64,000 nucleotides of DNA, taken from positions 17-64,016 of the forward strand of contig JAZSBI010000012.1 in NCBI GenBank assembly GCA_045602345.1. The letters are read 5' to 3'. The first letter of the stretch is position 1. Each line of letters opens with the position of its first letter. Shown piece by piece: positions 10,815-47,641 of the stretch. This DNA is from Acutalibacteraceae bacterium (GTDB lineage: Bacteria; Bacillota; Clostridia; Oscillospirales; Acutalibacteraceae). The position numbers and the translations under genes are program-made. Under the pieces are notes generated by a model. It ran no database searches. It worked only from the letters and a program-made list of their open reading frames with translations, and was not told the origin of the DNA.

Positions 10815-12449
10815 ATGGCAACAGTACCGACACAAGAAGACATTATGAAGCAATTGCGCAAAGATGAAAAGAAAAACACTAAAAATAGCAATTATTTCAA
10901 AAATGGCGGCAAACTTTACGGCGCTGAAAGTTCTTTTTTTAGCCCGGATTTTATAGCGTCCAGTTATCACGATAAATATAAAACAATTCCGCGCAATCAG
11001 GCAGGTGCGGTATCTTGTGGAGTTTTACGCGCCATTGCTTCAAAAGCATGGATAATCAATATTTGTATAAACCATATCTGCAAAAAAGTTAAACCATTTT
11101 TCAAACAAAGCACTGACAAAAATATACGCGGTTTTATTGTTTACAAAAATAATTCAGCAAAAGACAAATACAACACAAATGACAAAGAAGCAAAAGCAAT
11201 TACAGATTTTATCTTGAAAACGGGCAGTTACGCTGATACAGACCGCGATTCATTTGTGAAATTTGGAGCAAGGCTAGTTAGAGACCTTCTGACATTAGAC
11301 CAGATAGCAACAGAAATTCAGTACAACAAGAAAAATGAACCAGTAGCCTTTTTTGCGGTAGATTCAGCAACAATTGAAAAGGTTTTGCATGATGATACAA
11401 CAAAAGACGAATCAGAAGAAGATAAAGACGTTAAATATATTCAGGTTATCAACGGAATTGTAACGGCTGCTTATAAAAGCGATGAAATGCTTTTTGATTA
11501 TGAAAATCCTAGAACTGACATTTATCATTCACAGTACGGCTATTCATATGTTGAGCAGGCTGTAGACCTTGTAGCAACAGTTATTAACGCATTTATGTAC
11601 AATGCCGGAAACTTTACAGAAAACAAACTTCCAAAAGGAATGCTGCTTATTAATGGCGATGCTTCTCAAGATGTAGTTGACGAAATGACTGACTATATCG
11701 CAGAGATTTTAAGCGGTTCTCCACTCAATCAGTGGAGAATTCCAGTTATACCGTCAGGCAGCAAAGATGCAACAATCGAGTGGAAACAATTAAACGGCAA
11801 TAACCGTGAAATGGAATTTCAGGGTTTTATGGACTATCTGACAAGTGCCGTTGTAGCAATGTTTGGCTGTTCTATGGATGAATTGGGCTTACAATCACAG
11901 AAGTCACAGAATCTTTTTGAATCATCAGGAAATGCAAAAATTCAAGCGAGTAAATCTCTTGTTTTAGGTGACGTTCTTTCATTCTTTGAAGACTATATAA
12001 ACAAAATCGTTGAAAAGATAAATCCAGAATACAAATTTGAATTCGTCGGATATGAAAAAGACGACCCTTCAACAGTAGCAGACTTAGACGAAAAAGAATG
12101 CAGAACATGGAAAAGCGTAAATGAAAAACGTATTGAAAAAGGCTTAAAACCAATCAATCTTAAAGATATTAAAAATGGTGCTGACATTCCTATGAATGTT
12201 CAGTTAGTTCAGCTTTTACAATCTCAAATGGCGCAGGGCGGCATGGGTGATGGCGGTATGGATATGGGCGGCAATGGCGGCGGCGATGATGAATCATGGC
12301 AGGACTATTCTGACATTCAGACCGGCGATGAAAACTTTGAGAATCCAGAAGAAAATGAACCGGATAACACAGAACCAACAGACGGCATTGAAAAGTCACT
12401 TTCTTTCATAAACAAAAACAAAGCTACAAAGAAGCTTTTTGTAATTTAA
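10815..12449 (+). CDS. portal protein
   Basis: 544 aa, immediately after TerL, with an acidic G/D/E-rich C-terminus. GGGAGG SD upstream. Confidence 0.8.
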   Translation: MATVPTQEDIMKQLRKDEKKNTKNSNYFKNGGKLYGAESSFFSPDFIASSYHDKYKTIPRNQAGAVSCGVLRAIASKAWIINICINHICKKVKPFFKQSTDKNIRGFIVYKNNSAKDKYNTNDKEAKAITDFILKTGSYADTDRDSFVKFGARLVRDLLTLDQIATEIQYNKKNEPVAFFAVDSATIEKVLHDDTTKDESEEDKDVKYIQVINGIVTAAYKSDEMLFDYENPRTDIYHSQYGYSYVEQAVDLVATVINAFMYNAGNFTENKLPKGMLLINGDASQDVVDEMTDYIAEILSGSPLNQWRIPVIPSGSKDATIEWKQLNGNNREMEFQGFMDYLTSAVVAMFGCSMDELGLQSQKSQNLFESSGNAKIQASKSLVLGDVLSFFEDYINKIVEKINPEYKFEFVGYEKDDPSTVADLDEKECRTWKSVNEKRIEKGLKPINLKDIKNGADIPMNVQLVQLLQSQMAQGGMGDGGMDMGGNGGGDDESWQDYSDIQTGDENFENPEENEPDNTEPTDGIEKSLSFINKNKATKKLFVI

Positions 12450-14444: not shown

Positions 14445-17400
14445 TGGGATTTTTTGAAGATTTTGAAAAGAACGAAAAGCCGTCAAGTAAGAATTTTTTT
14501 TCTCGTGGTGATTTTGATGAATATAAAATTTCTGATGAACAATTGAAAGCTCATGGAATTGGACATTTTTTTAATAAGGATGAACTAATCAAAAGAGGAA
14601 AAGAAATAGAAAAAATCTATGAACAAATCTGCAAAGATACCGGTTTAGATATGACAACCGTTGTGAATAAATATCGTATAACAAAAGACGGCTGCTATTA
14701 TGACATTGAGAACCCGACAGAGAAGTTTTATTTTGATTTGAAAACAAAATTTGATGAAGCAGAACTTGTTGAGAAATCTGCAAAATATATTAAACGTTGG
14801 TTTAGTAATGGTGAGTGGCATTATAAATATCCACCAAAATATAAAGCAAATCAGAACCGAACGGAAACAAAAAAAGATATTGCTCAGTCTACAAAATTGA
14901 TAACAGGAATTGAACCTTTAAGAAATCCTACAGAACAGGAAATTGATGAAGCATTAGTTCAGTTAAGCCTTTATGCAATTAATGGAAAAATGAAATGTGG
15001 AGCTTTAGGAAATCATAGTGTATATGTTTCTGATAAAACTCAGGAACATATAAAAGAAACTCATGGAAAACCTAGAATTATTCCAGAAATAAAACATAAG
15101 GCTAAATATATTCCATTTGTTCCTGAGTTATTAAAAAATGGAAAGATTGCCGAAAAATCATCATCTAGCAAAGGTGTAATTTATGGAATTGTAGGTCAGG
15201 TAGAATATGTTAATGACAAAAACAAAAAGGTTAAAGAAGTTGTTGAACTTGCAATTAATTATGATAAAGATACAAGAAAATTTGTATTTTCATTTAGTGA
15301 TTGGGAAATAAAAAAATCCCTGCTAAATAACAGGGATCTTGACAACTCCTTGGCGTGTCCGATAGTAGATACTGAAACCGTTCCTATCACCGTCTACAGT
15401 CTATCAGAAACACCGATTTTGTCAAGTGGAACTGTAAACAAATCAATGAGTGACAAGCTTTTTTCATTATGGACAAGGCGATTATCGCCGGAATTCTGCA
15501 ATGAATTAAAGAAGCTCATGCACGATGATGAAGGTTTCCGGCTTATTCCAAAAAAGGTTTATGAAATTCCCGGTTATCCAAAAGGGCAGGATTTAGAAAA
15601 CTGTGATTTACTCGAATTGTCTTATGATTATTTCGTTATTTCATGCGGCGGAGACTGGCAGGATGAAAAGCTTGTAAAGTTTACTATCGGTGATGATGAT
15701 AAACTATCGGCAAAAGTTATTGATACATGTGAAAAAGAGAATAAAACAATCTTAAAAAACAAACTTGCTTATATTCACAATCCTGACAGCATAGACAAAT
15801 CTTTATTTATAGACTGGAAAGCTGAATTAAAAACAATCTGCAAAGAAAAGAATCTGGACTATGAAGAAACTTTCAAGAAATATGATACCAGCTTGTTACG
15901 CAAAACATGTGAAGTTTTCGGGCAGGATGCAGAAAATTGCATTGCATATAAAGCCTGCAAAGATTTGAATAAATCGCTTACTTTTTCCGGTTATAAATTA
16001 CAGGGTAGAACACGGCTTTATGGTATGGATATTTCAATTGAAAACAAAAAAGGTTCATACCGTTCAGGAACAGACAAAGACGGGCACAAGTGGAAAACAT
16101 TCATGCACTATGATTATGGTTACATCCGCGGTACTATTGGTGTTGATAAAGACCATGTTGACGTGTATATAGGCCCTGATAAAGAAGCTCAAAAGGTTTA
16201 TGTGATTCATCAGAATGATCCAGTTACCCATAAATACGATGAAGACAAGTGCATGTTGTGTTTTTCAAGTGCTGATGAAGCAAAAAAGGCATATTTGAAA
16301 CAATATGATAGACCGGGCTTTTTTGGCAGCATGGAAACATTTTCAATTGAACAGTTCAAAGATGTTGTTTTTAACAAGAAAGGTGAAAAAGTTGTAAAGC
16401 CTGATTATGACGGCGAAGACCTGCTGCATAAGTCTTTTACATTCCTTTTAACCGGCATAACAGAAAACAACAAGGCAAGAAAAATCGAACAGCTTGAAAA
16501 GGCTTTAACAGCTATATCCTGCAGGAATCCTTTTATTCTGACTCATGCAGAAGTTGACGATTCAAAAAAGTACAACGATATTGAAATACATTTTAGAGAT
16601 TTTAATAAAAGCAAAATTGCCGATGCAGTTGATAAGGTTGCTCTTGAATTAGATGAACCGTTAAAAGCTGCAAAAGGTGAACCGTTCCGATACAAAGCAC
16701 AAGAAGATTTGACAAATCAGGTAGTCAGAGAGCTGACAAGCAAAACGGCGGCCCTTTACCGGCTTGTTATTGAGTATTTCGGTTTACCAGAAGCAAACAC
16801 AGTTCAAAAGGCTTTTCCACTGACTTACAAGGGTAAAGTGTTGTATAACCCTGAAACCGGTGTACCAATTACACGCAATGACTGGCAGAAGTTTTTGAAT
16901 ATTCTGGACAAGTTTCTTAACCGCAATTATACCGGGCAAGGGGAGCGCATTATATTACGTTCTGATGCACTCGGTAGAATTATGAGCCGGATGTTAGAGA
17001 ACCAGAAACGCTACAAAGAAAACCTGCAGGATATACGCTATAAGGGCAAAACTTTTGATTGGATTTCTGACAGCGTTAAAAACATGAAGACAACTTTTGG
17101 GGATTCTATTACACGTTCTCAAGCTGCAAAGATTCAGATTGCTCAACAAAGCTGTACACAGCGTATCAAAAAAGTAACTGAAAATGTAAGAAATGATATT
17201 CAGCAGATTCTTATAGACGGCATTAAAGACAAAAAAAGTAGAAGTCAGGTTGCACAAGATTTATTTAACCGGTGTCATTCTCTTAACCGCGATTTTCAAA
17301 AGATTGCCGATACAGAGATTCAGGAAGCTTCATCTAAGGCTTACATTGCAGAGGAATTATATAATTCTGAACCTGGCGAAAAGGTTTATTTCAAAAGAAT

Positions 17401-17673: not shown

Positions 17674-17765
17674 GTGACAAAACAGAACTATCTTTGTTAT
17701 AATAGACTAGATTTGTTCTGCAAGAGCAGTCTTAAAACTTTGTTTTCAGGCTGCTCTTTTTTTTT
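17674..17765 (+). promoter_or_regulatory. promoter plus leader hairpin plus overlapping terminator, copy B
   Basis: GTGACA-18-TATAAT. Hairpin 17714-17728 (TGTTCT-GCA-AGAGCA). Terminator arms 17723-17732/17748-17757, then T9. Confidence 0.7.
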
Positions 17766-17791: not shown

Positions 17792-18883
17792 TTGCAGGTT
17801 GTTTATGTTATCAGAAAATCAGTTCTAAAATCATTCAGTTTTTTCAATCCTCTTGAAATTATAAAAAGTGGCCGCGCCTTGCCCGTTGGTACAATCAGAG
17901 AATGGAAAGGAAAAAAATACAAAAAAATTACTCCACAAAAATGGGTTGAAGTTAAAGAACAAAGAAAACACGGTGATTTGATACCCGAAGAAAAATTTAA
18001 TGCGAATAACTACAAAAATAAGTTTACAGATCCTAAGTGTACGAATGATGCAGCCGGAATAAAACATGTTTACTCTTTGCTCGGCGAAGAAGGACGTGCA
18101 ACACAAGCAATGGTTGAAAAGAAACTGAACGAACAAAGCCACAGACTTAAAAATGGCGATACACAAATCCGTAACATGCACAATATCAAATACGATGAAA
18201 ACGGTAAATTTGTTTCAGGTGAATGGAACGAAGAAAGAAAGAAGCTTCATCTTGAAATAATTAAAAAGATTCTCACGCCTGAAAAAGTAAATGCTTGCAA
18301 GCCGAAAAACGGAGAAAAGCCTAAGTTCATAATGTTCGGCGGCCGTGGTGGAAGCGGTAAGTCTTGGTTTACTGATAAAGAAAGAGCTGTAAAAGAAGGG
18401 CGCAAAGTTATGTTTGATAGTGACAATTACCTTATACTTGATGCTGACGAAATCAAAAAAGCTTTGCCGGAATTTCAGGGCTGGAACGCCGGAGAAGTTC
18501 ACGAAGAATCTTCTTTCTTGATGAAAGAAATTAAGAAAAATGCTATGGCGCAAGGGTTAAACATTATCATTGACGGCACAATGAATTATAACGAGAAAAA
18601 GCCGGACAAAGTAAGAAACGAAATGCTGGAAGCTAAATCAAAAGGCTATTCTCTTGAAGCGCATTATATGTTTACGCCGATTCAAAAAAGCTGCTTAAAT
18701 GCAATGAACAGATTCAAGACAAAAAAAGGCGATTTTTCAGGGCGTTTAGTTCCTACAGACATTCTTTTAGGTATGCAGGATAACGAAAAATCTTTTGATT
18801 CTGTCAAAGATATTGTTGATGATTGGACTTTCCGGGATAACCAAAACTATGATGCAAAGCTTGTCGCAAGAAAAGGTTTTTAG
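17792..18883 (+). CDS. zeta-toxin-like P-loop kinase with conserved N-terminal tag
   Basis: TTG start with AAAGGGG SD; the start is supported by alignment of its N-terminus to 21762 and 46841. Walker A FGGRGGSGKSWF, IIDGTM, FSGRLVP. Confidence 0.75.
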   Translation: MQVVYVIRKSVLKSFSFFNPLEIIKSGRALPVGTIREWKGKKYKKITPQKWVEVKEQRKHGDLIPEEKFNANNYKNKFTDPKCTNDAAGIKHVYSLLGEEGRATQAMVEKKLNEQSHRLKNGDTQIRNMHNIKYDENGKFVSGEWNEERKKLHLEIIKKILTPEKVNACKPKNGEKPKFIMFGGRGGSGKSWFTDKERAVKEGRKVMFDSDNYLILDADEIKKALPEFQGWNAGEVHEESSFLMKEIKKNAMAQGLNIIIDGTMNYNEKKPDKVRNEMLEAKSKGYSLEAHYMFTPIQKSCLNAMNRFKTKKGDFSGRLVPTDILLGMQDNEKSFDSVKDIVDDWTFRDNQNYDAKLVARKGF

Positions 18884-18894
18884 AGCAATACAAC

Positions 18895-18923
18895 TTGACC
18901 GAATAACAAAATTGAGTTAATAT
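18895..18923 (+). promoter_or_regulatory. candidate promoter of a mini-cassette
   Basis: TTGACC-17-TAATAT, followed by the strong SD GGAGGT. Confidence 0.4.
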
Positions 18924-18941
18924 AATAATGGAGGTGGTTTC

Positions 18942-19094
18942 ATGGATGATAAAAGAATTAAAGAAATCGTGAACGATCCTAATACTTGGGAATGGGATGG
19001 CTGCACTTATAACGAAGCCAACATTGACTCAAGTTATCTTGATGATACTTTCAAAGAAATCTTTGAAAAAGCGGAAAAATTAAGAAAGAAATAG
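18942..19094 (+). CDS. hypothetical small protein (50 aa)
   Basis: Hand translation MDDKRIKEIVNDPNTWEWDGCTYNEANIDSSYLDDTFKEIFEKAEKLRKK*. GGAGGT lies 6 nt upstream. Confidence 0.45.
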   Translation: MDDKRIKEIVNDPNTWEWDGCTYNEANIDSSYLDDTFKEIFEKAEKLRKK

Positions 19095-19180
19095 TGTTTG
19101 TGCCGTAGCAGAGTTAAATAAACTTGAAGCTGCTTACGAAGCTTATAAAGCTAATAAACAAAAAACTGAATGACAATTCA

Positions 19181-19206
19181 AGCCGTGATAAATCACGGCT
19201 TTTTTA
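19181..19206 (+). terminator. intrinsic terminator
   Basis: AGCCGTGA-taaa-TCACGGCT followed by TTTTTT. Confidence 0.65.
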
Positions 19207-19207
19207 T

Positions 19208-19507
19208 TTAAATTTCAAATAAAAGTTGCGAATTTCTAAAGTTTTGACCGCGCCTTTCTGCTGCCTGTTGTTTTTCAAGCCATTTTCTTGTACATTCAGG
19301 ACAGAGACCATTGAATTTTTTATTTTTCAAATCTACATCTGACAAAAGACAAAATTCTTTAAGCGTGGATAATGGCAGGTGTAATTCTTTTCCGCACTCC
19401 GCGCAAACATACGGCTCAAATGTTGGGTGTAAGAGTTTTACAATATCTTGACTGAATAAGGTCTTTTCACCGCGCGCTTTTATTTTCCATATTTCCCGAT
19501 CCTTCAT
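19208..19507 (-). CDS. hypothetical zinc-ribbon protein
   Basis: CAECG...CPEC. Sits 4 nt downstream of the HTH gene on the minus strand. Confidence 0.6.
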   Translation of the reverse strand: MKDREIWKIKARGEKTLFSQDIVKLLHPTFEPYVCAECGKELHLPLSTLKEFCLLSDVDLKNKKFNGLCPECTRKWLEKQQAAERRGQNFRNSQLLFEI

Positions 19508-19510
19508 AAG

Positions 19511-19732
19511 CTATCCTTTAATTACGGATTCTTTTGTGTTCTTATCCAAAACCTCAAACTTTAATTCACAATCCAGAGCTGCAAGAACATTTTCAAAATC
19601 TGAAACTTTCATATCATTCCTGTAGAGCTTGTTAAAAAGATTCTGCTTTGAGAATCCCATTTTAACGGATAATTCTGCAACGGTAATATTTCGCTTTACA
19701 CATATAATCTTGATAATTTCGCTTACGTTCAT
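19511..19732 (-). CDS. XRE-family HTH regulator
   Basis: Contains ITVAELSVKMGFSKQNLFNKLYRNDMKVSDFENVLAAL. Confidence 0.7.
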   Translation of the reverse strand: MNVSEIIKIICVKRNITVAELSVKMGFSKQNLFNKLYRNDMKVSDFENVLAALDCELKFEVLDKNTKESVIKG

Positions 19733-19741
19733 AAGGGATAT

Positions 19742-19837
19742 ATTAAACTAAATAATTCAATAAATCAATAAAAAAATTGAACGGTTTTACAAAATAGTTT
19801 AATTCAATGATTGACAGATTAAACTAGATAGTTTAAT
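19742..19837. promoter_or_regulatory. operator-like 9-bp sites (4 copies) around a divergent promoter region
   Basis: ATTAAACTA at 19742-50 and 19818-26. Its complement TAGTTTAAT is at 19795-803 and 19829-37. TTGACA at 19811-16. Confidence 0.5.
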
Positions 19838-19880
19838 ATTAAGGTGTAAGGCGGTTTGGAAGCCTTGCAAGGAGTTGCAA

Positions 19881-20195
19881 ATGGAAAACTACATTGTTTT
19901 GAAGAACATCGAGATTGATGGCGGTTACAAGATTGATTTTGAGGAAGTTGAAAAGAGAATCCCGGAAATGGATATTTCAGAGAGCGACAAAAAGCAGTTG
20001 GGCGAGTATGTGCAGGAATGTAAAAAGCATGATTTGACATTCGCTTTTCGGTTCAGTGCTTTTGTAAAGCAGACTTGCGGACACTGGGAACACTTGCAGC
20101 TTGCACATGAGGAATGGGTAAATGACCACATCGGAAACGGCAGGTGTACAAGATGCATTTGCGGTTACTGGGATTTGATGAAGAAAAGAGCATAA
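19881..20195 (+). CDS. hypothetical Cys/His-rich protein
   Basis: ATG 19881 with AAGGAG 6 nt upstream. In frame with track ORF 19875. Confidence 0.6.
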   Translation: MENYIVLKNIEIDGGYKIDFEEVEKRIPEMDISESDKKQLGEYVQECKKHDLTFAFRFSAFVKQTCGHWEHLQLAHEEWVNDHIGNGRCTRCICGYWDLMKKRA

Positions 20196-20271
20196 ATCAA
20201 CGCGCCGGGCGTTATCCCGGCTAAAAGGTTTATACATACCTGAAAAATCTTGAAAAGGCATGGGGTGCGGT

Positions 20272-20430
20272 ATGATGTACAATGTTTGCAAATGGTTGCA
20301 TAACGGCAAAATGACCGTGAGGGTTACGGACTGGACTATTGGAGAAGTTCTTTTTAGCGGTTCTTACAATGAGTGTTTAGACTATTGCAAGAATAATAAA
20401 CTTTATCACTGGGAGCAGGAAGATGTTTGA
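20272..20430 (+). CDS. hypothetical small protein (52 aa)
   Basis: Hand translation MMYNVCKWLHNGKMTVRVTDWTIGEVLFSGSYNECLDYCKNNKLYHWEQEDV*. Overlaps the next start. Confidence 0.35.
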   Translation: MMYNVCKWLHNGKMTVRVTDWTIGEVLFSGSYNECLDYCKNNKLYHWEQEDV

Positions 20431-20731
20431 AATGAAACTTGACGACAAAACAATTAAGGTTATGCAGCTTGAAGACTGGAAGACTAGCATTGAAAATGAC
20501 TTCAAGCCTGGAGATTACTTTGACGAAGGTATAGCATGGGATTTGATAAATTGCGTACCACCGCTGACTTTTTCATGCGGTTATTTTCAGTGTGGAGAGC
20601 CGCACTCTTTTGTAAACGGAAAGCAGACATACTTAACACTTTTGAAAGTGAATAAAAATCCGGAAGTTTGGCAGTTTTTAGGGTATTGCCACGCCGGGCA
20701 GCTTGTAACGCCTGACAAAAAAAATGATTAA
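20423..20731 (+). CDS. hypothetical protein
   Basis: ORF track only. Confidence 0.6.
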   Translation: MFEMKLDDKTIKVMQLEDWKTSIENDFKPGDYFDEGIAWDLINCVPPLTFSCGYFQCGEPHSFVNGKQTYLTLLKVNKNPEVWQFLGYCHAGQLVTPDKKND

Positions 20732-20743
20732 AGGAATTACATT

Positions 20744-21304
20744 ATGAGCATGACAATTCAGAAAGCAATTATTTTCGCTACTCTTAAACACGAGGGGCAG
20801 AAAAGAAAAGGAACTGACATTCCTTATATTGTTCACCCTATGGAAGTAATGCAGATTTTAACAGATTTGCAATGTAGTGAAAATGTAATTATAGCCGGTA
20901 TTCTGCATGATACACTTGAAGACACAAATACAACGCCGGAAGAAATAGAAAAGTTGTTCGGCCCTGATATTCTTGCAATTGTAAAAACTGAAAGTGAAGA
21001 TAAAACAAAGACTTGGAAAGAACGGAAAACCGCTACAATTGAAGACCTGCAGCACGCTGAACCAGAAACTAAAATAGTTTGCTTTGCTGATAAGTTTTCA
21101 AATATAAAAAGTATGTACCGTGATAAACTGGATATAGGCGCGGAATTATGGAAGCGTTTCAACGCTGACAAAGATTCTATCAAATGGTATTACAGCAGTA
21201 TTGCCGCGGCCTTATCAACGCCGGGCGTTAAAATGAATAATAAACGGTATGATGAGCTTTATAATGAATTTCTGGATTTGATTGATGCAGTTTTTCAGCA
21301 ATAA
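20744..21304 (+). CDS. RelA/SpoT-type HD-domain protein (small alarmone hydrolase-like)
   Basis: ATLKHEGQKRKGTDIPYIVHPMEVMQILTDL...IIAGILHDTLEDTNTTPEEIEKLFGPDILAIV matches the (p)ppGpp hydrolase HD signature. No synthetase domain is present. Confidence 0.8.
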   Translation: MSMTIQKAIIFATLKHEGQKRKGTDIPYIVHPMEVMQILTDLQCSENVIIAGILHDTLEDTNTTPEEIEKLFGPDILAIVKTESEDKTKTWKERKTATIEDLQHAEPETKIVCFADKFSNIKSMYRDKLDIGAELWKRFNADKDSIKWYYSSIAAALSTPGVKMNNKRYDELYNEFLDLIDAVFQQ

Positions 21305-21376
21305 ATAAAAGCTCTTTTCATTCTATTATTTTTCCGGTTTCTTTTTTATTTTGAATGCTTTGCCGATAATTTCAGC

Positions 21377-21610: not shown

Positions 21611-21645
21611 TGCAGTTTTTCGATAAATTGTAACCGCGTTTTATA

Positions 21646-21736: not shown

Positions 21737-21761
21737 ATGTCTGGACTTTGGGAGTACAGGC

Positions 21762-24700
21762 ATGTCAAGAATTATATATACAGTTGATAAATCAGTTCTT
21801 AGCTCATTTACTTTTTTCAAGCCTAATCAAATCATAGAAAAAGCTGCTAAAGGCAGCCAAAAAGCAGAACATGAATATTTGTACAGATACCCAAATTCTA
21901 AAGGGGGCTGGAATTACATCTATAAAGGTGAAGTTGAAAAGGTTAAAAAATTATTCCAGAACCCTATTGAAAAACTTTCTACAATTTTTCAATTTGCAAA
22001 AGAAAAAGTTCATACCCTCTATGTGAATCATGGAATCAAAGCATCTTATAATGCTACAGAAAAAGACTTTGCAAAGCATATTCTTGAATACAAACTTAAT
22101 AAAGAACGCTGGGATAAGCGCTTTGAAAAACTTGAAGCAAACCAGAAGCATAAAAGCCCGGTAAAACTTAACGGCGGCAAAACAACACAGCGCATTCAAA
22201 AAGAAGTAAAAGAAGTAACAGGACAGGATAAAAAAGAACCAGGCGAATTTAAACCCAATGCTTCTTTAATGCGCAAAGTTTGGGCAATATTCAACAAGGA
22301 AAAGGCAGCCGAAAGCGATAGAAAAGCTGAAAGTGAAAATCAGAAAAAAGTCAAAGAAACATTCGATGCTTATGCAGATGTTTTGAAAAACGGCGGCAGA
22401 CTAAATATTTCAAACCCGAAACTAGGAAACGTTGTATTTGATGCAGGTGTTTTAGGTGACTTAACGAAGAAAAATAAAGGCGGTTTCGGCATAAGGCATC
22501 TTATTGCAAGCCGGTATTTAAAAGACGGCATGAATACAGATGATATTTGTGCATTGCTGTACTTGGTAAAAGATACTGTTGAAACGGCTTTGCCGCCGGA
22601 CACTGAAAAATCAAAAATCAATCTTAAAAAAGATGGAATCTGGGTCGGAATCTCAAAAGAATGGAACGGTGAAAAAGAAAACTGGATTATTACAGGTTTT
22701 CCTGAAAATGACAGTGAAGGAAATATTACAAAAGAAGCGGCAGATACCATAAAGACGGTAAACGCACAATATGGCTATGCACTTGAACACTCTCCTATCC
22801 GCGAACAAGTGGGGGCTGTCATTGCTTCTATCAATACTATAGCATCGGCTGATAATTCTGTCAAACCAAAAGAATCAGAAATCGAAGCGCATGAAAACCG
22901 CCCACAGGCAATGTTGGGCAATGACAATGCTAAGAAAGACTTTACGGAAGCGGATAAGGAACTTGCCCTTAGTCATATTAAAAATGATGCTGTAAAAATG
23001 CTAGAAATTCCGTATGAAAGAAAGGAATATGAAAAACTTTTTCCGCGTGGCGAGGTAAAAACACCTTTTGAAACTGTAAAGCTCGGAGAGCATCAGTTTG
23101 AAAGGCTTGCCGCAAAAGACGGTGGAACAAGAAAAAATCTTATCGGCGCGATGTATCAGACATTGAAAGAGCCTTGTGCCGTGATTGAAGATGTCGATAA
23201 ACAGGGCAGAGAAGCAAAGCTCTATATTAAATCGTTCATCGGAGAGAATAAGAACAAATTTACGCTTGCTGTTGTTGTCGATATTGACGGCAAGCCTGTT
23301 TCTGTATCTTTTGGGGAAAGAAAAGAAAAGCAGATTGAGCAAAAAATAAAAATGGCTGCCCGGTTCTACTATGTAGCGGCGGACAGCCCGACTATTGGAA
23401 CCGGTCAAGAACCGTTGCCCAACAGCTCAAATATATCATCAATCGGCGGTTCTGTCAAACTTAGCGAGGGTGACAGGGTTTCGCAGAACGGCGATACAGG
23501 CGTTATCACAAACGATTTTAAGAACGGTTTAGTTTTTGTTGAATTTGACAATGGAAGTAAAGGCCGTGTCAAAGTATCAAAATTGAAGAAAATTGACGAA
23601 CCAAAAGAACCCGAAACCGAAACTGTCAAACCAAAAGAATCAGAAATCGAAGCCCATGAAAACCGCAGCCGGGCCATGCTTGGCAATCAGAACGCTCGTA
23701 AATATGGTATTTCAGACAAATCTTGGAATTATTTACAGCGACATTTTGAAGAATTTGAAAACGCTGGTAGAAATATAATAACTGATACAGGCGCTATCGA
23801 TTCAGATTTTTATAGAGCTGTTATGAACCCTGATACATACCTGACACCAGAGCAACAGAAAGAAAAATTTGCTGCTACGGATGAATTTGACGCTGTATTT
23901 GCTCAAAATGGTTTCAAAAAAGTATCTGAAATGCTGATAGCAATGTATAATGATTATAAGGGGGCTACAAATGCAGAAAATAACACTGGAATTGAGCCGG
24001 GAAGACTATCCGATTCTAATGAGCCGGTACAGTCTGAACAACTTGAAGGAAATAGCAATAAAGATGTGCATAGCACAGAAAATCGAGCTGACAGAAACGA
24101 ACCTTTATTCAGTTCTGACGAATCTGGAAATGGACTTGGAAGACCAAACAGCACAAGCGACAGAGGACGAGGACGAATAACAAAAGCACAGGCGCGTAAA
24201 ATACGCGAACAGTGCCGCGAAATACTCAAGAAACCCGATTCAGAAATAACAGAATCAGATAAAGAGATATTATCTCAATATGTTGGAGCTGGTGGAACAG
24301 ACGAAGAAGACAGTTCTAACAGCGGTGTTCTTTATGAATTCTACACGCCGCGCAATGTCATTAAAAAAGTATGGCAGCTTGTTGATAAATACAATCCAAA
24401 CAAAAACAAAAAAGTCATTGAACCGTCTAGCGGTATAGGGCGCTTTGCAGAAGACAGAACGGAAAACTTCACATTGTTTGAACTTGAAGAAGAATCGGCT
24501 AGAATAGCTCGAATTCTTCATCCTGATGCAGAAGTAGTACAAGGCGCATTCCAAAAGAACTTTATGAAGCAGGAAAACGGGCGCTTTGCTGATAAAAACT
24601 TTGACAAATTCGACGTAGCTGTAGGCAATCCGCCTTATGGTAGATATGAAGGTATCTACAAGGGCCGCGGAGAAGGCAAAGAATTCAAACGTTACGAATC

Positions 24701-28847: not shown

Positions 28848-28862
28848 GAAAGCGTATACTAA

Positions 28863-28884: not shown

Positions 28885-28889
28885 AAGAA

Positions 28890-29506: not shown

Positions 29507-29512
29507 ATCAAT

Positions 29513-29657: not shown

Positions 29658-29664
29658 GACACTT

Positions 29665-30846: not shown

Positions 30847-32895
30847 ATGAACAAATCGGATTTCAATTCTTTATCACCAGAAACAAAGCTTAACTACTTC
30901 AAACGTGAACTTATCAAACGCCTTGCAGAACAAGAAAAAAAAGACAAACAGATAGTAAAAAAAGCTCTTTCATTTCTTGATATTATTTCAATTCAGAAAA
31001 GTGCAGGCGGCACAACAAGAAAGCGTCACGGCGTAGGCGAGCATGTTATATGGCACGGTCAGGAATATGTAAAAGTTTCCGAACATCCAGCAAGATACAA
31101 GCCCTATTATCGTGAAAACAGCCGTGGTGCACAACTTGCGGCGGCGGCAATTGCAAAAAAAATACGCGCTGCAAAAGATATTGATGAATTGATGCAGGTT
31201 GTTCAAGACAATATGCAGCGTTTCGGCTTTTCGTCCGACGGCAACGATCCATTGTTCAAACTTATGAAAGAAGCCCGGAAAGAATGGGCTAAAAACAAAA
31301 AATCTGGAAAATCGCCGCTTAGTGCTATGAGCACAAAAGAAATGCGTAAAAAATACGGAATTTCTGAAAAGAAAAAAGATGCAAACAATAAACCTGCAGG
31401 CGGCAATATTGAAGACAAGAAAAAGGCGTTAAAAGAAGTTGAAGACGCTATTGATAATGCCGGTGATTATGATGATATTGAGGAACTCGAAAACGAGCGT
31501 CAAAAACTACTCAAAGAAATAAAAGCATCTGAAAAGAAACCGGAACAAAAAGAACCAGAAGCCGAGAAAACAAAGAACCGTAGCGACGCAATGAAGGGAA
31601 ACAAAAACGCCTATAAAGACGGCCCGAAAGACGAAGAAAAAACACAGCGTTTCGCTACTCAAGATGAAGTTGACGAAGCTACAGCCGCTTGCGATAAACA
31701 AACAATTGAACGAAAAGACATGTTGAAAAAGCCTGCAACTCAAATTCAGCAGTATGCAAATTCAAACGTTGAGAATTTTGAAGGTGGCATTGATAAATTT
31801 ATCGAGCATATGCGCGAAGGTAATTCTGATATTTCAATGCAGAAAATTGGAAACGAATTCGCAAAATTGATAAATCATAATATCGCGCGCGATATATGGA
31901 ACGAATACGAATCAGGTCATTTGAAGATTGATGAAAACGGCTTATTCAAAGCAGCTGATGAAGACAAGCTTGAAAGCGAAAAGAATGATACAGAAAAGGC
32001 TATTGAAACAGCTAAAGAACAAATCAAAGAGAATGTAGAACACTACAAAAAATCTGAATATAACAGATGGTCTGCTGAATCAATCATCCGTAAACTCGGC
32101 AAAAAGAAACTAGAGGTATATGCAAACGCAAAAATTGAACTGGATGCAGAAAACTACGAAAAAGATTTGATTGCAAAAGTTGAAAGCATGATTAAAGACG
32201 GGAAAACAGTCAGTGAAACATCAATAGGTTTTGCAGTAAATAATCATTTTATCAATATTGAGTGTCAGAAACTTGCAAGAGCAAAACTTGAAAGCATGGA
32301 AAAAGTGGCCACAGAAATAGACTTGCCGGTAGATCCTGCTGATATGACAGAAGCAAGGTCTATTATTGGTGCTGATGTTGCTCGAATTTTGAACGGACGT
32401 GATGTATACGGGAATGCCAAACAAACTTTGACAGACAAAATACGAAGACGTGTACGCAACAATCCAGGTGTAGCGCGCGCTATGCTTGTTTTTATAAAAC
32501 AGGAACAGGAAAGAACCGGCAAAACCGTTTACACACCGAAACACAGTATATGGGAAGTTTTACCAAAACTCAATGAAAACGCAAAACAGGCAGCCGAAAA
32601 AGGCGAAGGCGAGAAGAAAACTGGTACATCCGGTGTATTGTATCACTCGGATGATGGTGTAACGGTTGTTGAAGATAAGGATTGGGGCAGATATAAAGTA
32701 GAATTCCCCGGCAAGCCTGATTCAGATACAATCAGCACATTGAAACACAACGGCTTTAGATGGTCTCCAAAAAACAAAGTTTGGGTATGCTACAACACAG
32801 CAAACGGCGAGTATTCATTAAAACGTGTTGCTGAAAAGCTCGGCTGGAAGAAAGGCGATTCAAAAGAATCTGCTGATGATACGGAGGGCGTGTAG
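30847..32895 (+). CDS. large K/E-rich multidomain protein with one NRSxAMxGNxNA motif
   Basis: 682 aa. KNRSDAMKGNKNAYK at nt 31573-31617. Has a compact C-terminal domain ...LKHNGFRWSPKNKVWVCY. Confidence 0.7.
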   Translation: MNKSDFNSLSPETKLNYFKRELIKRLAEQEKKDKQIVKKALSFLDIISIQKSAGGTTRKRHGVGEHVIWHGQEYVKVSEHPARYKPYYRENSRGAQLAAAAIAKKIRAAKDIDELMQVVQDNMQRFGFSSDGNDPLFKLMKEARKEWAKNKKSGKSPLSAMSTKEMRKKYGISEKKKDANNKPAGGNIEDKKKALKEVEDAIDNAGDYDDIEELENERQKLLKEIKASEKKPEQKEPEAEKTKNRSDAMKGNKNAYKDGPKDEEKTQRFATQDEVDEATAACDKQTIERKDMLKKPATQIQQYANSNVENFEGGIDKFIEHMREGNSDISMQKIGNEFAKLINHNIARDIWNEYESGHLKIDENGLFKAADEDKLESEKNDTEKAIETAKEQIKENVEHYKKSEYNRWSAESIIRKLGKKKLEVYANAKIELDAENYEKDLIAKVESMIKDGKTVSETSIGFAVNNHFINIECQKLARAKLESMEKVATEIDLPVDPADMTEARSIIGADVARILNGRDVYGNAKQTLTDKIRRRVRNNPGVARAMLVFIKQEQERTGKTVYTPKHSIWEVLPKLNENAKQAAEKGEGEKKTGTSGVLYHSDDGVTVVEDKDWGRYKVEFPGKPDSDTISTLKHNGFRWSPKNKVWVCYNTANGEYSLKRVAEKLGWKKGDSKESADDTEGV

Positions 32896-34980: not shown

Positions 34981-36327
34981 ATGACAATAATTGATTTTGA
35001 CGTATTAAAAAGTTTTGCTGATAGTTTTGGATATGATATTGTAATAGAAAAGCGTGTTAATGGACGGAACATAGCAAAGCTGATAAAGCGCCGTGTTCAA
35101 GATAAAAACGGTAAAATGACAACTGTTTATGTTAAAAATGGTGAAGAAGTGAAAATTCACACAAATAGGAACGGCAAGGCTGTAGGTGAGGTTGACATAA
35201 CCGGCAAGACAAAACATATATTAGGAAGCAAAGTTAGTTTTTCAAATAAGAACGGCAAAAATCAGAACGGCTTTATTGTTGAATCAAGAAACAACATGGA
35301 TGTAATACAAGACATTCACGGCGTTAGGCACTTTGTTCCGCACGACGCTATCCAGGTGAAGCATCTAACGCCGGAAACAATCAATAAAAAAATGTCTGCA
35401 AAAGATTTTAATGCTGCTGAATATAACCGTAAATATGATGATTTTGAAGCAAACGGAAGCTATAAAGGCATTGACTATTCTCTACAAAAATTCATAAGCG
35501 GTCTGAAAGACACGCATCCAGAAATTGAGCAGCGAATAAACTATGATATTAAAAGAGCTGAATCAAAACCCGAAACGATTTCGCTTTACAGGTTGAGCGG
35601 AGAGGGCGCGGAAGCTGTTTATTCTAAAGAACGGGAAGAAATACATAAAAAGATTATGGCTGAATTTTTTACGCCAGAAAAAATATGGAATACAACGCCC
35701 ATAGGAAACGAAAAACCGAAATTCCTTATTTTAGGTGGCAGAGGCGGAAGCGGCAAATCAGCCTTTAATGCAGATGAACATCCTGAATCCGGTGTATATT
35801 CAGAGAAAAACGTAATAAAGGTTGACCCTGACGAATTAAAAGAAAAGCTTGCAAACCTGACAGAAAAAGAGGGTTGGCAGGGTTATATGGCGGCGGCTTA
35901 TCACGAAGAATCAAGCGATTTATCAAAGAAAATAATGAAACAAGCAGTTTTAATGAACTTGAATGTTGTCATGGATATTACAATGTCGAATGCAGACAAG
36001 CAAATTGAAGAATTGGAACTTGCTCATTCATACGGATATGAAACAGGCGTTCATTATATGCACGTACCGAAACAAGACAGTTTCCGGCGCGCGATGTGTA
36101 GATATTGCGAAAACAAAAAGACAAAAGAATTTGATTATTCCGGGAGACTTGTTCCGCCGAGCGTATTATTGAGCATGGTTAATAATGAAGAAAACTTTGA
36201 AAAAATCAAAAAGTATGCTGATAATTGGAGTTTTTGGAACAATTTTATTCCGTGGAAGAATCCAGACGGCACAAAAAACGGAGCTATTAAAATTTGTGAG
36301 GGTGGAAAGCAGAAGGCTTGCCGATAA
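34981..36327 (+). CDS. zeta-toxin-like P-loop kinase, paralog 2
   Basis: Contains KPKFLILGGRGGSGKSAFN, VVMDITMSN and YSGRLVPPSVLLSM. Its C-terminal half is collinear with 17792..18883. Confidence 0.75.
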   Translation: MTIIDFDVLKSFADSFGYDIVIEKRVNGRNIAKLIKRRVQDKNGKMTTVYVKNGEEVKIHTNRNGKAVGEVDITGKTKHILGSKVSFSNKNGKNQNGFIVESRNNMDVIQDIHGVRHFVPHDAIQVKHLTPETINKKMSAKDFNAAEYNRKYDDFEANGSYKGIDYSLQKFISGLKDTHPEIEQRINYDIKRAESKPETISLYRLSGEGAEAVYSKEREEIHKKIMAEFFTPEKIWNTTPIGNEKPKFLILGGRGGSGKSAFNADEHPESGVYSEKNVIKVDPDELKEKLANLTEKEGWQGYMAAAYHEESSDLSKKIMKQAVLMNLNVVMDITMSNADKQIEELELAHSYGYETGVHYMHVPKQDSFRRAMCRYCENKKTKEFDYSGRLVPPSVLLSMVNNEENFEKIKKYADNWSFWNNFIPWKNPDGTKNGAIKICEGGKQKACR

Positions 36328-36666: not shown

Positions 36667-36754
36667 TTGACAACACTGAAATATAAATATATTATGACAC
36701 TATAGATTTGTCTTGCAAAGGCAGTCGTACTTTATGTATGGCTGCCTTTTTTTT
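36667..36754 (+). promoter_or_regulatory. promoter plus leader hairpin plus overlapping terminator, copy D
   Basis: TTGACA-17-TATTAT. Hairpin 36709-36723 (TGTCTT-GCA-AAGGCA). Terminator arms 36718-36726/36740-36748, then T8. Confidence 0.75.
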
Positions 36755-36775
36755 ATGGTCAGCCAAGAGGATTTT

Positions 36776-38158
36776 ATGGCTGATTCTTTGATAGACATTT
36801 CAGTTCCATTTATTATATGTAAATCACTGGAAGAAGGTTTTGATAATGACGGCAATTACATTTTTGAAACCGAAGCATCAAACGAAAACTTAGACCTTCA
36901 AAATCAAATCACACAGCAAACAGCCCTATTAGATTCTAAAGAATACTTTCTTTCAAATGGTGTAGTTTCCGACGATCACCAGCATAAAAAAAGACGGCCG
37001 GACGGCACAATAGAAACAGATAAATCAAAAATAATCGGTGAACCAATTTCAGTAAGAACAGAAGGCAAAAGAACTTTTGTAAAAGGCAAACTGTATGGCG
37101 CGGTAGAAGCGGCAAAGCCTTTTATTACTTTGCTTAAAGCTCATTCATCAAGAGTCAAAGCGTCAATCGGCGGAATAATGCCGCGCATTGTCAAAAATCC
37201 AGACGGCACAGAAACAATAACATCATTCTTATGGAATGATATGGCACTGACTGTATCGCCTGTTAATTACACTGTTGGCAGTGCATGTTTTGCAAAATCT
37301 TTGACAAATGCAGAATTCTGCAAAGCTTTAACAGCAGAAAGTCCGGCTGGAATGGCATTACAGCACGAAGATTTAGAACCGCATATTACACAGGCACAGC
37401 TTGCAAAAGACAGTGAAATTGAAAAGAACAATGACAAAAATGAAGCATTGATAAGAAACTGTTTAACAGAAATTAAAAATAAAAAACTACAGTCAAATGA
37501 AACTGAAATAACAAACTATCTTATTTTTCACGGTATGAACAAACACACAGCACAGGCTGCGGCTTGTGAAATTATAAAGCAAGGAGGGCCTATTATGGCT
37601 AAGAGCTGGTTCAGACAGCAGCTTGATGAAATCTTTCAGAAATCGTTGCCTGACAACGAAAAACCAAAGAAAGACGATGAAGCTGTTAATGAAAACGATC
37701 TTGATTTGGATGGAATCAATGATAACGAAGATGGAAACGACAACGACGATGTTGATAAATCCATTGTCGACATGACATCGATTCTGAAATCGGTTGATGC
37801 AGAAATGACTACAATGCGTCAGACAATTGAAGATCAAAAAGCACAGATTGCGGAATTGCAGGGCGCTGTTCTCGATGTAACAAAGTCATTTTCTTCTTAT
37901 CTTGAAAAGCCAAATGCACGTCAAACTGTTATTCAGAAAAGCGCGACAAACACACAGCAGGCAAAGAAGGCTGCAAAGCCTGATACAACTGATTTTGATG
38001 TTTTGAAATCTGCTTTGATGAAAGCAAGCCACGAAGGAAAAATTGGAGTTGAGACTGTTCAGCTTTACAGCAGCGAATTCCAGAAGGCAATGAAAGGCGA
38101 AACTGTGAACCCAAAGGTTATGCAGGATATTTGCCGTTTCGTAAATGCCAATAAATAA
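36776..38158 (+). CDS. prohead protease (XkdF/S78-like) fused to a coiled-coil scaffold-like C-terminus
   Basis: The start is moved to ATG 36776 (AAGAGGA SD), because the track start TTG 36713 lies inside the leader hairpin. Contains DDHQH, SIGG and ALTVSPVN motifs. Lies upstream of the capsid gene. Confidence 0.6.
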   Translation: MADSLIDISVPFIICKSLEEGFDNDGNYIFETEASNENLDLQNQITQQTALLDSKEYFLSNGVVSDDHQHKKRRPDGTIETDKSKIIGEPISVRTEGKRTFVKGKLYGAVEAAKPFITLLKAHSSRVKASIGGIMPRIVKNPDGTETITSFLWNDMALTVSPVNYTVGSACFAKSLTNAEFCKALTAESPAGMALQHEDLEPHITQAQLAKDSEIEKNNDKNEALIRNCLTEIKNKKLQSNETEITNYLIFHGMNKHTAQAAACEIIKQGGPIMAKSWFRQQLDEIFQKSLPDNEKPKKDDEAVNENDLDLDGINDNEDGNDNDDVDKSIVDMTSILKSVDAEMTTMRQTIEDQKAQIAELQGAVLDVTKSFSSYLEKPNARQTVIQKSATNTQQAKKAAKPDTTDFDVLKSALMKASHEGKIGVETVQLYSSEFQKAMKGETVNPKVMQDICRFVNANK

Positions 38159-38169: not shown

Positions 38170-39618
38170 ATGGGATTTTTTGATCAGCCAGAAGAAAACG
38201 AATTTGATACAAGTGTTCAGAACGAAGTGCTTGAAAAAGCTCTTGAAGCAGGTTATGGCACTGATGCCGCAAATTTCACAGGTGGACGCGCATTGCAGCG
38301 CGAAGACCTTGAAGCAACATTGGTTTCTATTCTCGATGTAAAACAGAAAGATTTGAAGCTTTTCCATAAACTTCACAAACAGAATGAAACATCAACAGTT
38401 CATCAGCTTGACCGTATGGTAGGCGTTGGCGATGATGAATTCCTTTTTGTTGGTGAAGGCGAGGAAGCTAAAGAAGGTGACGGCGAAATTGAAAGAAGAA
38501 TCTTTCAGACAAAGTACATTTCTACAGAATGGAAAGTTACGCATCCAGCAACATTGACAAACAATGTTGAATCAGCTATTAACGTCCAGAAAATCGCCGG
38601 TACAACAAGAGTTGGTAAGGCCGTTGAACGCGGAATTTTCCACGGTGATTCATCTGTAGTACCTAAGCAGTTTGACGGCTTGCTTAAAACTTTGAATGAT
38701 TCATCAAAGAACGCTGATTTAGCTAAAGAGCATCGTGCCGTATTGTTTGATGCACGCGGTCTTGAAATCGGTGAAAAAAATGACACACTGGGCGTTAAAT
38801 TTAATGAAGACACATTCAATGAAATTGCGGAAGAAGTATTTAACCGCGGTGGTGATCTTTCAGAAGCATACTTCCCTCCGGCTTTAGCTGGACAGTTCTG
38901 GAATTTGTTTAGTGAACGTTTGCGCTATTCGACAGGTGACACTCATACAGGACTTGAGAAATTGCCTGATGTTTGCACTGGTATCGGTTCTACTATCAAA
39001 ATTACAGACGATTGCGGCCCTGATAAAATGTTTAAGATCAAAGGTGAAGTTGTTGCAAAAGGTAATGGTGAAAAACGTCCAAACACACCAACAGGACTTA
39101 CAGCCGTTGCATCAGCTGATTCAGCATCTAAATTTAACGGCTTTGCCGGTGATTATCTCTATGCTGTTCATGCGGTCAACTCATTCGGTATTTCAGCAGG
39201 TAAAGAAATTGCCGCCGCTGTTACAGTTGCAGCCGGTAGCAAGGTTACTCTGACAATCACACCTGATTCAAACGGCCCTAGACCTTCTGGTTTTATTATT
39301 ACAAGAAGTGCTGCAGGCGGTTCAAAGCTCATGGAAATGGTTCGCATTAAGGCAAGCCCTGATGGAACTACAACATATATTGATTTGAACGAAGAACTGC
39401 CGGGAACTGGTTCAATCGTATTGCTTACACCAGTAACCGATGAAATGATTCCTAACCTGTCATTCGCACAGCTTATGGGGCTTTCAAACTTTGACTTGCC
39501 AACAAACAACCAGTTGACACATCGCGGTGTAATTGCTGTTTACGGTAATGCAGAGTTGCGCGCGCCTGAACATTGTGCATTGATTAAGAATATTGGTTGC
39601 CGCGGCGGCTTGTATTAA
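38170..39618 (+). CDS. major capsid protein
   Basis: 482 aa, immediately after the protease/scaffold gene, with GGGAG SD. The call rests on position and size. Confidence 0.75.
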   Translation: MGFFDQPEENEFDTSVQNEVLEKALEAGYGTDAANFTGGRALQREDLEATLVSILDVKQKDLKLFHKLHKQNETSTVHQLDRMVGVGDDEFLFVGEGEEAKEGDGEIERRIFQTKYISTEWKVTHPATLTNNVESAINVQKIAGTTRVGKAVERGIFHGDSSVVPKQFDGLLKTLNDSSKNADLAKEHRAVLFDARGLEIGEKNDTLGVKFNEDTFNEIAEEVFNRGGDLSEAYFPPALAGQFWNLFSERLRYSTGDTHTGLEKLPDVCTGIGSTIKITDDCGPDKMFKIKGEVVAKGNGEKRPNTPTGLTAVASADSASKFNGFAGDYLYAVHAVNSFGISAGKEIAAAVTVAAGSKVTLTITPDSNGPRPSGFIITRSAAGGSKLMEMVRIKASPDGTTTYIDLNEELPGTGSIVLLTPVTDEMIPNLSFAQLMGLSNFDLPTNNQLTHRGVIAVYGNAELRAPEHCALIKNIGCRGGLY

Positions 39619-46840: not shown

Positions 46841-47641
46841 ATGGGAAAAATCAATTATACATGTGATATTGATGTTTTGATTCCTTTGTCATTTTTCAAG
46901 CCGGAAATGATTATAAAGTCAACATATCCAGTAGGTACAATCCGTATATGGAACGGTAAAAAGTACATAAAGACTGCTACAGGTAGATGGAATCAGTTAA
47001 ACGAAAACAAATCTACTGTTTCCCACGATGGCGAATTTGTCTTAACAAGCAAGGGGAGCAAAGACTTTGGAGAAATTACACCTGAAATGTCAAAAATAAT
47101 GCATAGACAATCTGGTAAAATAAGATTAAGAATAGGCATTGAAAGCGAAACTGATAAAAATCATAATTATGGTGAAAAACATATAAACAGAGCTTTGAGA
47201 GCTAAAAATTTAGCTGATATTGGATTTAATAATGCAAGAGATTTTGTAGAATATATCAGTGAAAATATCAGTTATATTTTTGAAAACGGAAAGTCTTTAA
47301 TAGCAGTAAGAGAGAAAAATAGTCATTTGGCAGGGGCATGGATGGAACTCACACCTTCTGTTGAAGGTGATTTTTATGATGTAAAGACAGCTTCACCACT
47401 AAGAAGCAACTGGTATAAAAATAAAACGCCTGTTTGGATAAATCCAAAACTAGGCGTTTTAACAAAGAGTATAGGTGTTCCGCCTGCACACCAATTCAAT
47501 AAAAACATTGAATCCATTTACGGAATTGTCAGTAACTCTAATGGAATCATACTACAATCAGATGATTTGTCAAGTAAGAAAATCATAAATAAATCTTTCC
47601 GCAAACAAATTGAAGAAATACTTTGTAGTATAGGAGCGTAG
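46841..47641 (+). CDS. protein carrying the conserved N-terminal tag (third member)
   Basis: MGKINYTCDIDVLIPLSFFKPEMIIKSTYPVGTIRIWNGKKYIK aligns with the N-terminus of 17792. Confidence 0.65.
   Translation: MGKINYTCDIDVLIPLSFFKPEMIIKSTYPVGTIRIWNGKKYIKTATGRWNQLNENKSTVSHDGEFVLTSKGSKDFGEITPEMSKIMHRQSGKIRLRIGIESETDKNHNYGEKHINRALRAKNLADIGFNNARDFVEYISENISYIFENGKSLIAVREKNSHLAGAWMELTPSVEGDFYDVKTASPLRSNWYKNKTPVWINPKLGVLTKSIGVPPAHQFNKNIESIYGIVSNSNGIILQSDDLSSKKIINKSFRKQIEEILCSIGA

Follow-up and report, generated by a model that had tools for sequence, protein, structure and literature searches.

In phage T4, the internal proteins IPI, IPII and IPIII reach the prohead core by means of a capsid-targeting sequence (CTS), which the head protease cuts off (PMC9024508, PMC3012670). 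The first 30 residues of the phage P1 protein DarB are sufficient for capsid localisation, and no N-terminal consensus was found by the authors among the P1 Dar proteins (PMC9024508). Many head-internal proteins of phiKZ and SPN3US carry N-terminal propeptides, which the prohead protease cleaves off at a short motif (PMC10052503, PMC7411985). Polyvalent proteins were predicted to be packaged and injected by Iyer, Burroughs, Anand, de Souza and Aravind in 2017, and their processing by zincin-like metallopeptidases was proposed in the same paper (PMC5512222). The present analysis concerns a stretch of 64,000 nucleotides of contig JAZSBI010000012.1 (the window), which is part of an uncultured myovirus. 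Three otherwise unrelated proteins encoded in the window, referred to by the positions of their start codons as 17792, 21762 and 46841, begin with the same short peptide. Sequence comparison identifies this tag as the lineage-specific first part of a widespread, uncatalogued unit of about 50 residues, whose best-supported function appears to be the loading of effectors into the capsid.

The tag shared by three proteins

The N-termini of 17792, 21762 and 46841 are MQVVYVIRKSVLKSFSFFNPLEIIKS, MSRIIYTVDKSVLSSFTFFKPNQIIEK and MGKINYTCDIDVLIPLSFFKPEMIIKS, respectively, and have 26–27 residues in common. The copies lie on the + strand at 17792..17869 (residues 1–26 of a 363-residue Zeta-toxin protein with a TTG start), 21762..21842 (residues 1–27 of a 2361-residue DarB-like giant with PBECR1, PBECR2, Eco57I-methylase and SNF2 domains) and 46841..46921 (residues 1–27 of a 266-residue protein). 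A 28-column profile of the three N-termini scored 55–66 bits on its own members and at most about 6 bits elsewhere in the six-frame translation of the window. When each member was left out of the profile in turn, the omitted tag ranked first among 1,039 open reading frames (ORFs), with E-values of 2.2e-6 (17792), 2.6e-9 (21762) and 3.2e-5 (46841); the runner-up matches had E >= 0.24. The common N-terminus of about 25 residues that an earlier note on this DNA had described for these proteins is therefore borne out. Pairwise identity between the tags is 42–48% in protein and 45–64% in DNA, and three to five of the conserved residues in each pair are encoded by differing codons. This combination argues for an old divergence with selection acting on the tag peptide. 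None of the structural or replication genes of the window has a tag-like start.

The TTG start of 17792, which the tag had been taken to validate, is confirmed because the orthologue in L023, a strain variant, has ATG at this codon and the database orthologues P0117, P0118 and P0256 start at the same residue, beginning MQVVYVIRK. The SFF[KN]P..II version of the tag is confined to this lineage (P0004/5, P0117/8, P0256 and L023). Two resemblances of the tag to enzyme segments were also considered, both with HMMER E >= 15. The likeness of KSVLSSFTFFKPNQIIEK (21792–21842) to methyltransferase motif X (SGVLYEFYTPRNVIKKV, residues ~826–842 of the giant; SVLTSFYTPQPIIEG in P0072) is probably due to chance, and that to the Zeta segment FFTPEKI was judged to be chance.

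The wider unit and its carriers

After the tag, 17792 and 46841 share the stretch PVGTIR(E/I)W(K/N)GKKY, in agreement with the earlier note. Written as PVGTIREWKGKKY.K..GKW, this stretch was found in 16 viral contigs. The proteins that contain it there are all of the polyvalent type, and ..KKS[FL]......[IV].K[AGS].. stands ahead of it. A profile built from database sequences only aligned with residues 10–52 of 17792 (52 bits) and residues 17–51 of 46841 (41 bits). Because this profile aligns across both parts, the second half of the tag (SVLKSFSFFNPLEIIKS) can be equated with 'elkKSfgle..evieKg' of other phages. Four parts make up the unit. It opens with a short hydrophobic stretch, which is followed by an amphipathic helix (..KS[FL]..) and then by a junction of the form [hydrophobic].K[A/S/G]; the last part is a three-stranded beta-meander, rich in lysine, of which there are several flavours. 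The same grammar is common to the N-termini of about 120 homologues of the Zeta cargo of 17792 (34–94% identical, mostly 60–80%), in which a short hydrophobic start is followed by a ..KS.Y.E...K[AS]FG helix, [hydrophobic].K[AGS] and a basic hairpin, of which at least five flavours occur.

Units in the window, all on the + strand, were assigned to types with independent profiles, those for type B being derived from database orthologues and those for type C from 24 database proteins. Type A is represented by residues 9–81 of 17792 (E 1.6e-20; 52–65 bits across profiles), with the basic beta-meander PVGTIREWKGKKYKKITPQKWVEV at 17882..17953 (residues 31–54), and by residues 23–58 of 46841 (E 2.8e-13; 40–42 bits), with the module PVGTIRIWNGKKYIKTATGRW at 46928..46990 (residues 30–50). 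The giant 21762 has a type-B unit (residues 16–55, E 8.8e-8) whose hairpin, HEYLYRYPNSKGGWNYIY, follows the tag at 21870..21923 (residues 37–54). A possible internal type-B unit (ELVEKSAKYIKRW...) at 14726..14833, residues 95–130 of the InPase/MuF protein, is marginal (E 0.055).

Two further proteins had been proposed to carry versions of the tag, and both proposals hold in part. The second Zeta-toxin protein, 34981, matched the strict tag only marginally (E 0.24–0.45), but has a clear type-C unit with a different hairpin at residues 7–55 (35.2 bits, E 2.8e-11); its N-terminal segment at 34981..35145 (residues 1–55) reads MTIIDFDVLKSF...VIEK...KRRVQDKNGKMTTVYVK. The 682-residue protein 30847 has a long type-A unit with a divergent hairpin, GVGEHVIWHGQEYVKV, at 30922..31203 (residues 26–119; 36.0 bits, E 2.6e-11), but the register first suggested was wrong. 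The equivalent of the tag is KKALSFLDIISIQKS (residues 38–52), not KLNYFKRELIKR; the latter is an extension that long type-A units share upstream of the tag position.

When 1.84 billion representative proteins were searched exhaustively with HMMER and a 57-position profile of the unit, 965 protein clusters matched at E <= 1e-3, and 121 of them reached E <= 1e-10. Only three module-bearing fragments had been returned by an earlier word-indexed protein search with a 60-residue alignment. Among the top 148 proteins, the unit occurs once in 68, twice in 58, three times in 17, four times in 4 and five times in 1. The first copy begins within 100 residues of the N-terminus in 122 of these proteins, and in 64 of the 68 that have a single copy. 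Internal copies separate effector domains. The protein P0242, for example, is ordered as unit, topoisomerase IB, unit, ART, unit, ..., unit, and P0241 as unit, SAM lyase, unit, Gp96-like, unit, unit; P0238 is built alike. Since the internal units lie between effector domains, these giants can be read as concatenated blocks of unit plus effector. In the window, such blocks are encoded as separate genes.

Profile searches had been proposed as a check in the earlier note, and they brought out this wide distribution but no match to a catalogued family. Neither tag nor module matched any model in Pfam, LPD1–39 included (E <= 10), NCBIfam (E <= 1) or PHROGs. A profile search of the PDB gave no significant match, and a Foldseek comparison of the unit model with the PDB and BFVD returned nothing at E <= 0.001. 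The module may be the same as one of the LPDs of Iyer et al. that never entered Pfam. A short unit-bearing protein was also seen in L023, where an extra gene for 257 residues (1511–2284), starting MFMDLLHGDYIEKAGLPVGTIRGNYKK, lies just after the portal gene; it is not found at that position in the window.

The proteins that carry the unit are of the cargo type, and none is the product of a structural or replication gene. Overall, the carriers include Zeta toxin, PBECR1–3, ddrB-ParB, InPase, ART and methylase-helicase proteins. In the window, 17792 and 34981 contain Zeta-toxin kinase domains, and 21762, with its PBECR1, PBECR2, Eco57I-type methylase and SNF2 helicase domains, matches the 'DarB-like antirestriction' PHROG. 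No database model matches the cargo domain of 46841 (gene 46841–47641; residues 56–253), which is 43% identical (E 1e-36) to residues 57–256 of the L023 MuF/InPase protein (4261–7365). Because its homologue sits inside that protein, the 46841 cargo is considered an ordinary shuffling effector domain, which is a solo protein led by the tag in the window, whereas in L023 it is fused into a MuF protein that starts with MGFF.

The structure of 17792 was predicted with AlphaFold2 from a 121-sequence alignment. Confidence (pLDDT) exceeded 90 in the Zeta core, was 45–56 for residues 1–30 (short helices) and about 75 for residues 31–50 (a three-stranded sheet), and was weaker in the linker. When the unit was modelled alone, the sheet had a pLDDT of 93 (strands 35–38, 41–47 and 50–53) and the tag 51–66. 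In the model of the whole protein the tag is not docked onto the kinase core. This low-confidence tag standing apart from the core suggests a layout of handle, linker and cargo, and it places the tag outside the Zeta kinase fold rather than within a known enzymatic fold, an alternative that the earlier note had raised.

The N-terminal unit also behaves differently from the cargo behind it. When the two Zeta proteins of the window are compared with those of L023, 58 of the first 60 residues are identical in 17792 and 59 of 60 in 34981, whereas the remainders are 76–77% identical and differ in length. In the first 60 codons of 34981 there are seven synonymous differences and one non-synonymous difference. 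Among phages with orthologous Zeta cargo (60–80% identical), the N-terminal unit varies freely. The unit thus tracks the phage and not the cargo. A unit that a phage retains through exchanges of cargo fits a part that would have to match a phage-encoded partner.

A second punctuation motif, E.E..[ENK]NR[SP].AM.GN.NA, was observed between the domains of the giant 21762 (PBECR1, PBECR2, methylase and helicase) at 22908–22931, 23673–23696 and 25179–25202, and once in 30847 (31588–31611). The protein at 32940, which has LPD3 and ddrB-type ParB domains, starts with the second half of this motif (MMGNQNAYKG, 32940–32969), and a gene of L029 does likewise (MKGNKNAYKG). The motif is possibly a point of fusion, fission or processing. 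In the giant's orthologue in L027 (P0016, 3435–11009), Hom_end/LAGLIDADG domains suggest an intein or an inserted homing endonuclease in the methylase-helicase. Directly after the giant gene, on the - strand, lies a pair encoding a HicB-like antitoxin with a helix-turn-helix domain and a HicA-like toxin (28890–29557), which is also present in L023.

Genomic setting and proposed function

The genes of the window are nearly all on the + strand. Small and large terminase genes (8252 and 9080) precede the portal gene (10815..12449, +), which forms the upstream border of a cargo cluster within the head module. DNA methylase genes at 12581 and 13157 and the gene for the 1059-residue InPase/MuF protein (14444; Pfam domains InPase and MuF) come next. 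The effector-like genes extend from 17792 to 36327, between the MuF protein and a head maturation protease that is probably fused to a scaffold (36713..38158, +; PHROG 1028). The major head protein (38170..39618, +) is 28–30% identical to its counterparts in SPO1/Twort-type myoviruses; neck and tail genes, including the tail sheath (50703), and the baseplate lie downstream. The order portal, MuF protein, cargo cluster, protease and major head protein is also found in L023, L025 and L029. All nine confirmed reference-genome matches, as well as the homologues with a named source, are Treponema or Treponemataceae, from which a Treponema or other spirochaete host is likely. No near-identical sequence turned up when 24 kb were compared with annotated phages and plasmids, and a tblastn search of phages with 46841 was likewise negative. 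Viral contigs with a related portal or major head protein had head proteins that were only 58% identical, a different gene order and no tag.

We infer that the unit acts in capsid loading, because it is restricted to effectors, lies in a head-module context and is arranged as handle, linker and cargo, and because there are precedents in T4 and P1 DarB. The unit would mark the start of effector units that are loaded into tailed-phage heads, with a flexible linker joining it to the effector domain. As a handle, it would bind an internal component of the procapsid, such as the protease/scaffold protein, the portal or the MuF protein, and diverse cargo would thereby be incorporated ahead of DNA packaging. 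The three cargos of the window would share one version of the tag because a single partner, specific to the phage, receives them all. In other phages, several blocks of unit plus effector are fused into one giant polyvalent protein. Taken as a whole, with the secondary proposal of cleavage included, this explanation of the unit as a procapsid-loading handle for packaged effectors is given roughly an even chance of being correct.

In the secondary and weaker part of this proposal, the head protease would cut at the junction, removing the tag and separating the effectors in the giants. Such trimming is a tentative suggestion that we would not favour at present. At the junction, the tags read IIEK|A, VIEK|R, IIK|S and IQK|S. 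In PDB entry 5lii the homologous major head protein of phi812 is deposited full-length, and in 9row it begins at S25, which implies a cut at EDVVK24|S25. This VVK24|S25 aligns with VLEK23|A24 of the major head protein of the window, for which a maturation cut at NEVLEK23|A24LEAG (nucleotides 38236–38241) is predicted; a published cleavage site for this family of major head proteins was not found in the literature. In the N-terminal 60-residue segments, the motif [ILVM][ILVM]EK[ASGR] was seen five times against 1.4 expected, a modest enrichment. The protease at 36713 is a candidate for the trimming enzyme as well as for the binding partner.

A second shared N-terminus, MGFF[DE], was noted on the major head protein (38170–38184, MGFFDQPEENEFD), on the InPase/MuF protein (14444–14458, MGFFEDFEKNEKP) and on a weakly PBECR1-like protein (43083–43097, MGFFDADEDIEK|G). 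Translation of this last protein probably begins at the ATG at 43083, for which there is a good Shine-Dalgarno sequence. Homologous major head proteins lose an N-terminal peptide, and MGFF[DE] could be a second class of propeptide that mimics the N-terminus of the head protein on cargo.

Several results weigh against loading by this unit or against its cleavage part. Internal copies account for 131 of the 256 in the top 148 proteins, and a classical N-terminal signal would have no need of them. The profile of the window tags had no match at E <= 1 among 229 related database proteins and performed no better than a reversed-sequence decoy. Conversely, leader-only profiles from other phages missed the window tags (best score 5.9 bits, for a 12-seed profile), as did a profile of 104 mixed N-termini, which was degraded by its mixture of hairpin types. 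Residues 1–9 and the FF core are accordingly regarded as lineage-specific, with homology to the wider unit demonstrable only from about residue 10. The leaders of co-resident cargos in other related phages resemble each other only loosely. When unit and tag profiles were compared with DarB, DarA, DdrA, DdrB and Ulx, nothing was found at the DarB N-terminus and only noise elsewhere than at N-termini (i-E 0.12 to 5). The proposed cleavage motif is short and was picked post hoc. With a scoring matrix for head-protein sites, the giant's junction ranked 17th of 18,405, and the other four junctions ranked 219–558, close to the rank that the best among some 50 windows would have by chance. The junction might equally be a structural helix cap and turn, and the head maturation protease at 36713 has no match in Pfam.

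A purely N-terminal signal is too narrow a description, because the unit is repeated up to five times and about half of its copies are internal. The earlier note had likened a shared leader on unrelated cargo to capsid targeting. The leader is real and polyvalent cargo does lie in the head cluster, but the leader is not an independent signal of 25 residues, being part of a unit that is repeated and also internal. A fuller version of the loading proposal treats the unit as a 'cargo handle and cut mark', which would load effectors, be cut at its junction by the head protease so that giants are diced inside the head, and have its helix tuned to the docking partner of its own phage. We consider this version unlikely. 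If it were true, the tuned helix would explain the private tag on the three cargos.

DNA upstream of the tagged genes is also partly conserved. The regions preceding 17792 and 21762 are similar (z = 7.3) and belong to a four-copy element at 17674–17760, 21646–21735, ~30765–30850 and ~36670–36760, upstream of 17792, 21762, 30847 and the protease gene, respectively (four matches against 0.01 expected). The element consists of a near-consensus sigma-70-type promoter (11 of 12 consensus matches in the two copies scanned), a conserved leader, GATTTGTYYTGCAARRRCAGTCT, and a hairpin with a T-run, a layout similar to that of late promoters under antitermination control, for instance lambda PR'-tR'. 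Because the first codons of the protease ORF overlap the promoter and leader (at 36705), the true start of the protease is probably downstream of the TTG at 36713. Duplication of gene starts was rejected as the source of the tag, since the element precedes 30847 and the protease gene, both without the strict tag, and is absent upstream of 46841.

The same distribution bears on the possibility that the conserved 5' ends are recombination junctions for the swapping of cargo cassettes and have no function as protein. Cassette exchange would account for the near-identity of the first 60 codons between the window and L023 in Zeta genes whose cargos are 76% identical and differ in length, and the fusion of the 46841 cargo domain into the L023 MuF protein is one of its hallmarks. 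However, the upstream element is shared with untagged genes and missing from 46841, the tags are so divergent in DNA (45–64% identity) that their conservation is visible in the peptide, differences in 34981 are synonymous over non-synonymous by 7:1, and the fold of the module is confidently predicted; recombination without protein function is thus judged improbable. Equally little weight is given to the unit as a pro-sequence, or as a chaperone or inhibitor handle, that would keep toxic cargo inactive or properly folded until assembly. The cargo does include toxins, and the N-terminal peptide of the phage 80alpha scaffold is needed for assembly independently of cleavage (PMC5744158), but the AlphaFold model has no contact between tag or module and the kinase core, and the unit also heads non-toxic ParB, methylase-helicase and SAM lyase proteins.

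The strongly basic character of the beta-meander, a small sheet with conserved aromatics, can be read in another way, with the unit serving as a nucleic-acid-binding or post-ejection handle. The meander would hold the effector either on the phage genome, so that both are ejected together, or on DNA or RNA of the host; the tag would be an N-terminal cap, and loading would come about in some other way. Repetition of the unit one to five times, with internal copies, is common for binding modules of the avidity type, and the fold search gave faint, non-significant, partial Tudor-like matches. No significant match in fold or sequence to a DNA-binding domain was obtained, though, and a nucleic-acid handle leaves unexplained both the private version of the helix on three cargos and the N-terminal position of the first copy (122/148); it is an unlikely reading that still deserves some attention. 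Hardly any credence is left for the FF core as a site for the host protease Prp, as in L27 and the 80alpha head proteins, to which the earlier note had compared it. A hydrophobic-x-F-F sequence is present, and nothing more. Prp cuts F|A after 13–14 residues in an L27-like context (PMC5744158), whereas here the FF is at residues 17–19 and is followed by K/N-P. The FF is private to the window lineage and absent from related units of other phages, and the confirmed genome matches are to Treponema or Treponemataceae rather than to Firmicutes-type hosts of the described system.

Comparison with known systems

Capsid-targeting signals and the architecture of polyvalent proteins are already known; the widespread, repeated module itself is uncatalogued. 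If the unit is a loading handle, packaged and injected effectors would become recognisable from sequence across about 1,000 protein families, the majority of which lack annotation. As a portable tag, the handle could also serve to load foreign proteins into phages that are not models, beyond what the T4 and P1 systems offer. It would further explain how giants are built by concatenation of handle and effector, and perhaps how they are processed. Even without a function, the unit merits a domain model, as it delimits effector domains and would improve the annotation of polyvalent proteins.

The window resembles the polyvalent proteins of Iyer et al. in its PBECR, ddrB-ParB, InPase, ART and Zeta domains, in the methylase-helicase dyad, in the linkage to MuF and in the late-gene context. 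A recurring unit at N-termini and between domains is not described in the sections of that paper used here (PMC5512222).

For the head-internal proteins of phiKZ and SPN3US, the prohead protease recognises the motif S/A/G-x-E. Both protease and motif differ from those considered here, where cleavage is putative, and no shared folded module is reported in the parts of the phiKZ and SPN3US literature drawn on. The lysine-based junction of the unit resembles the phi812-type head-protein site rather than the T4 motif. As a group the tags, which finish in IIKS, IIEK and IIKS, lack a T4-type (L/I)-x-E ending; 21762 (IIE|K) would be the one exception, and in 34981 the first position is V (VIE|K).

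As with the T4 CTS, a peptide at the extreme N-terminus is common to several unrelated proteins of one phage, here three (residues 1–27). The T4 signal is about 10 residues long, cut at (L/I)xE and strictly N-terminal, whereas the element described here is a unit of about 50 residues with a folded sheet, internal repeats and a [hydrophobic].K[A/S/G] junction; the parallel with T4 is not one of sequence. Similarity to P1 is found in the cargo, since DarB and 21762 belong to one architecture class, that of methylase-helicase antirestriction giants, and DarB can be regarded as a functional analogue of 21762. Unlike the P1 Dar proteins, the three cargos of the window visibly share one N-terminus.

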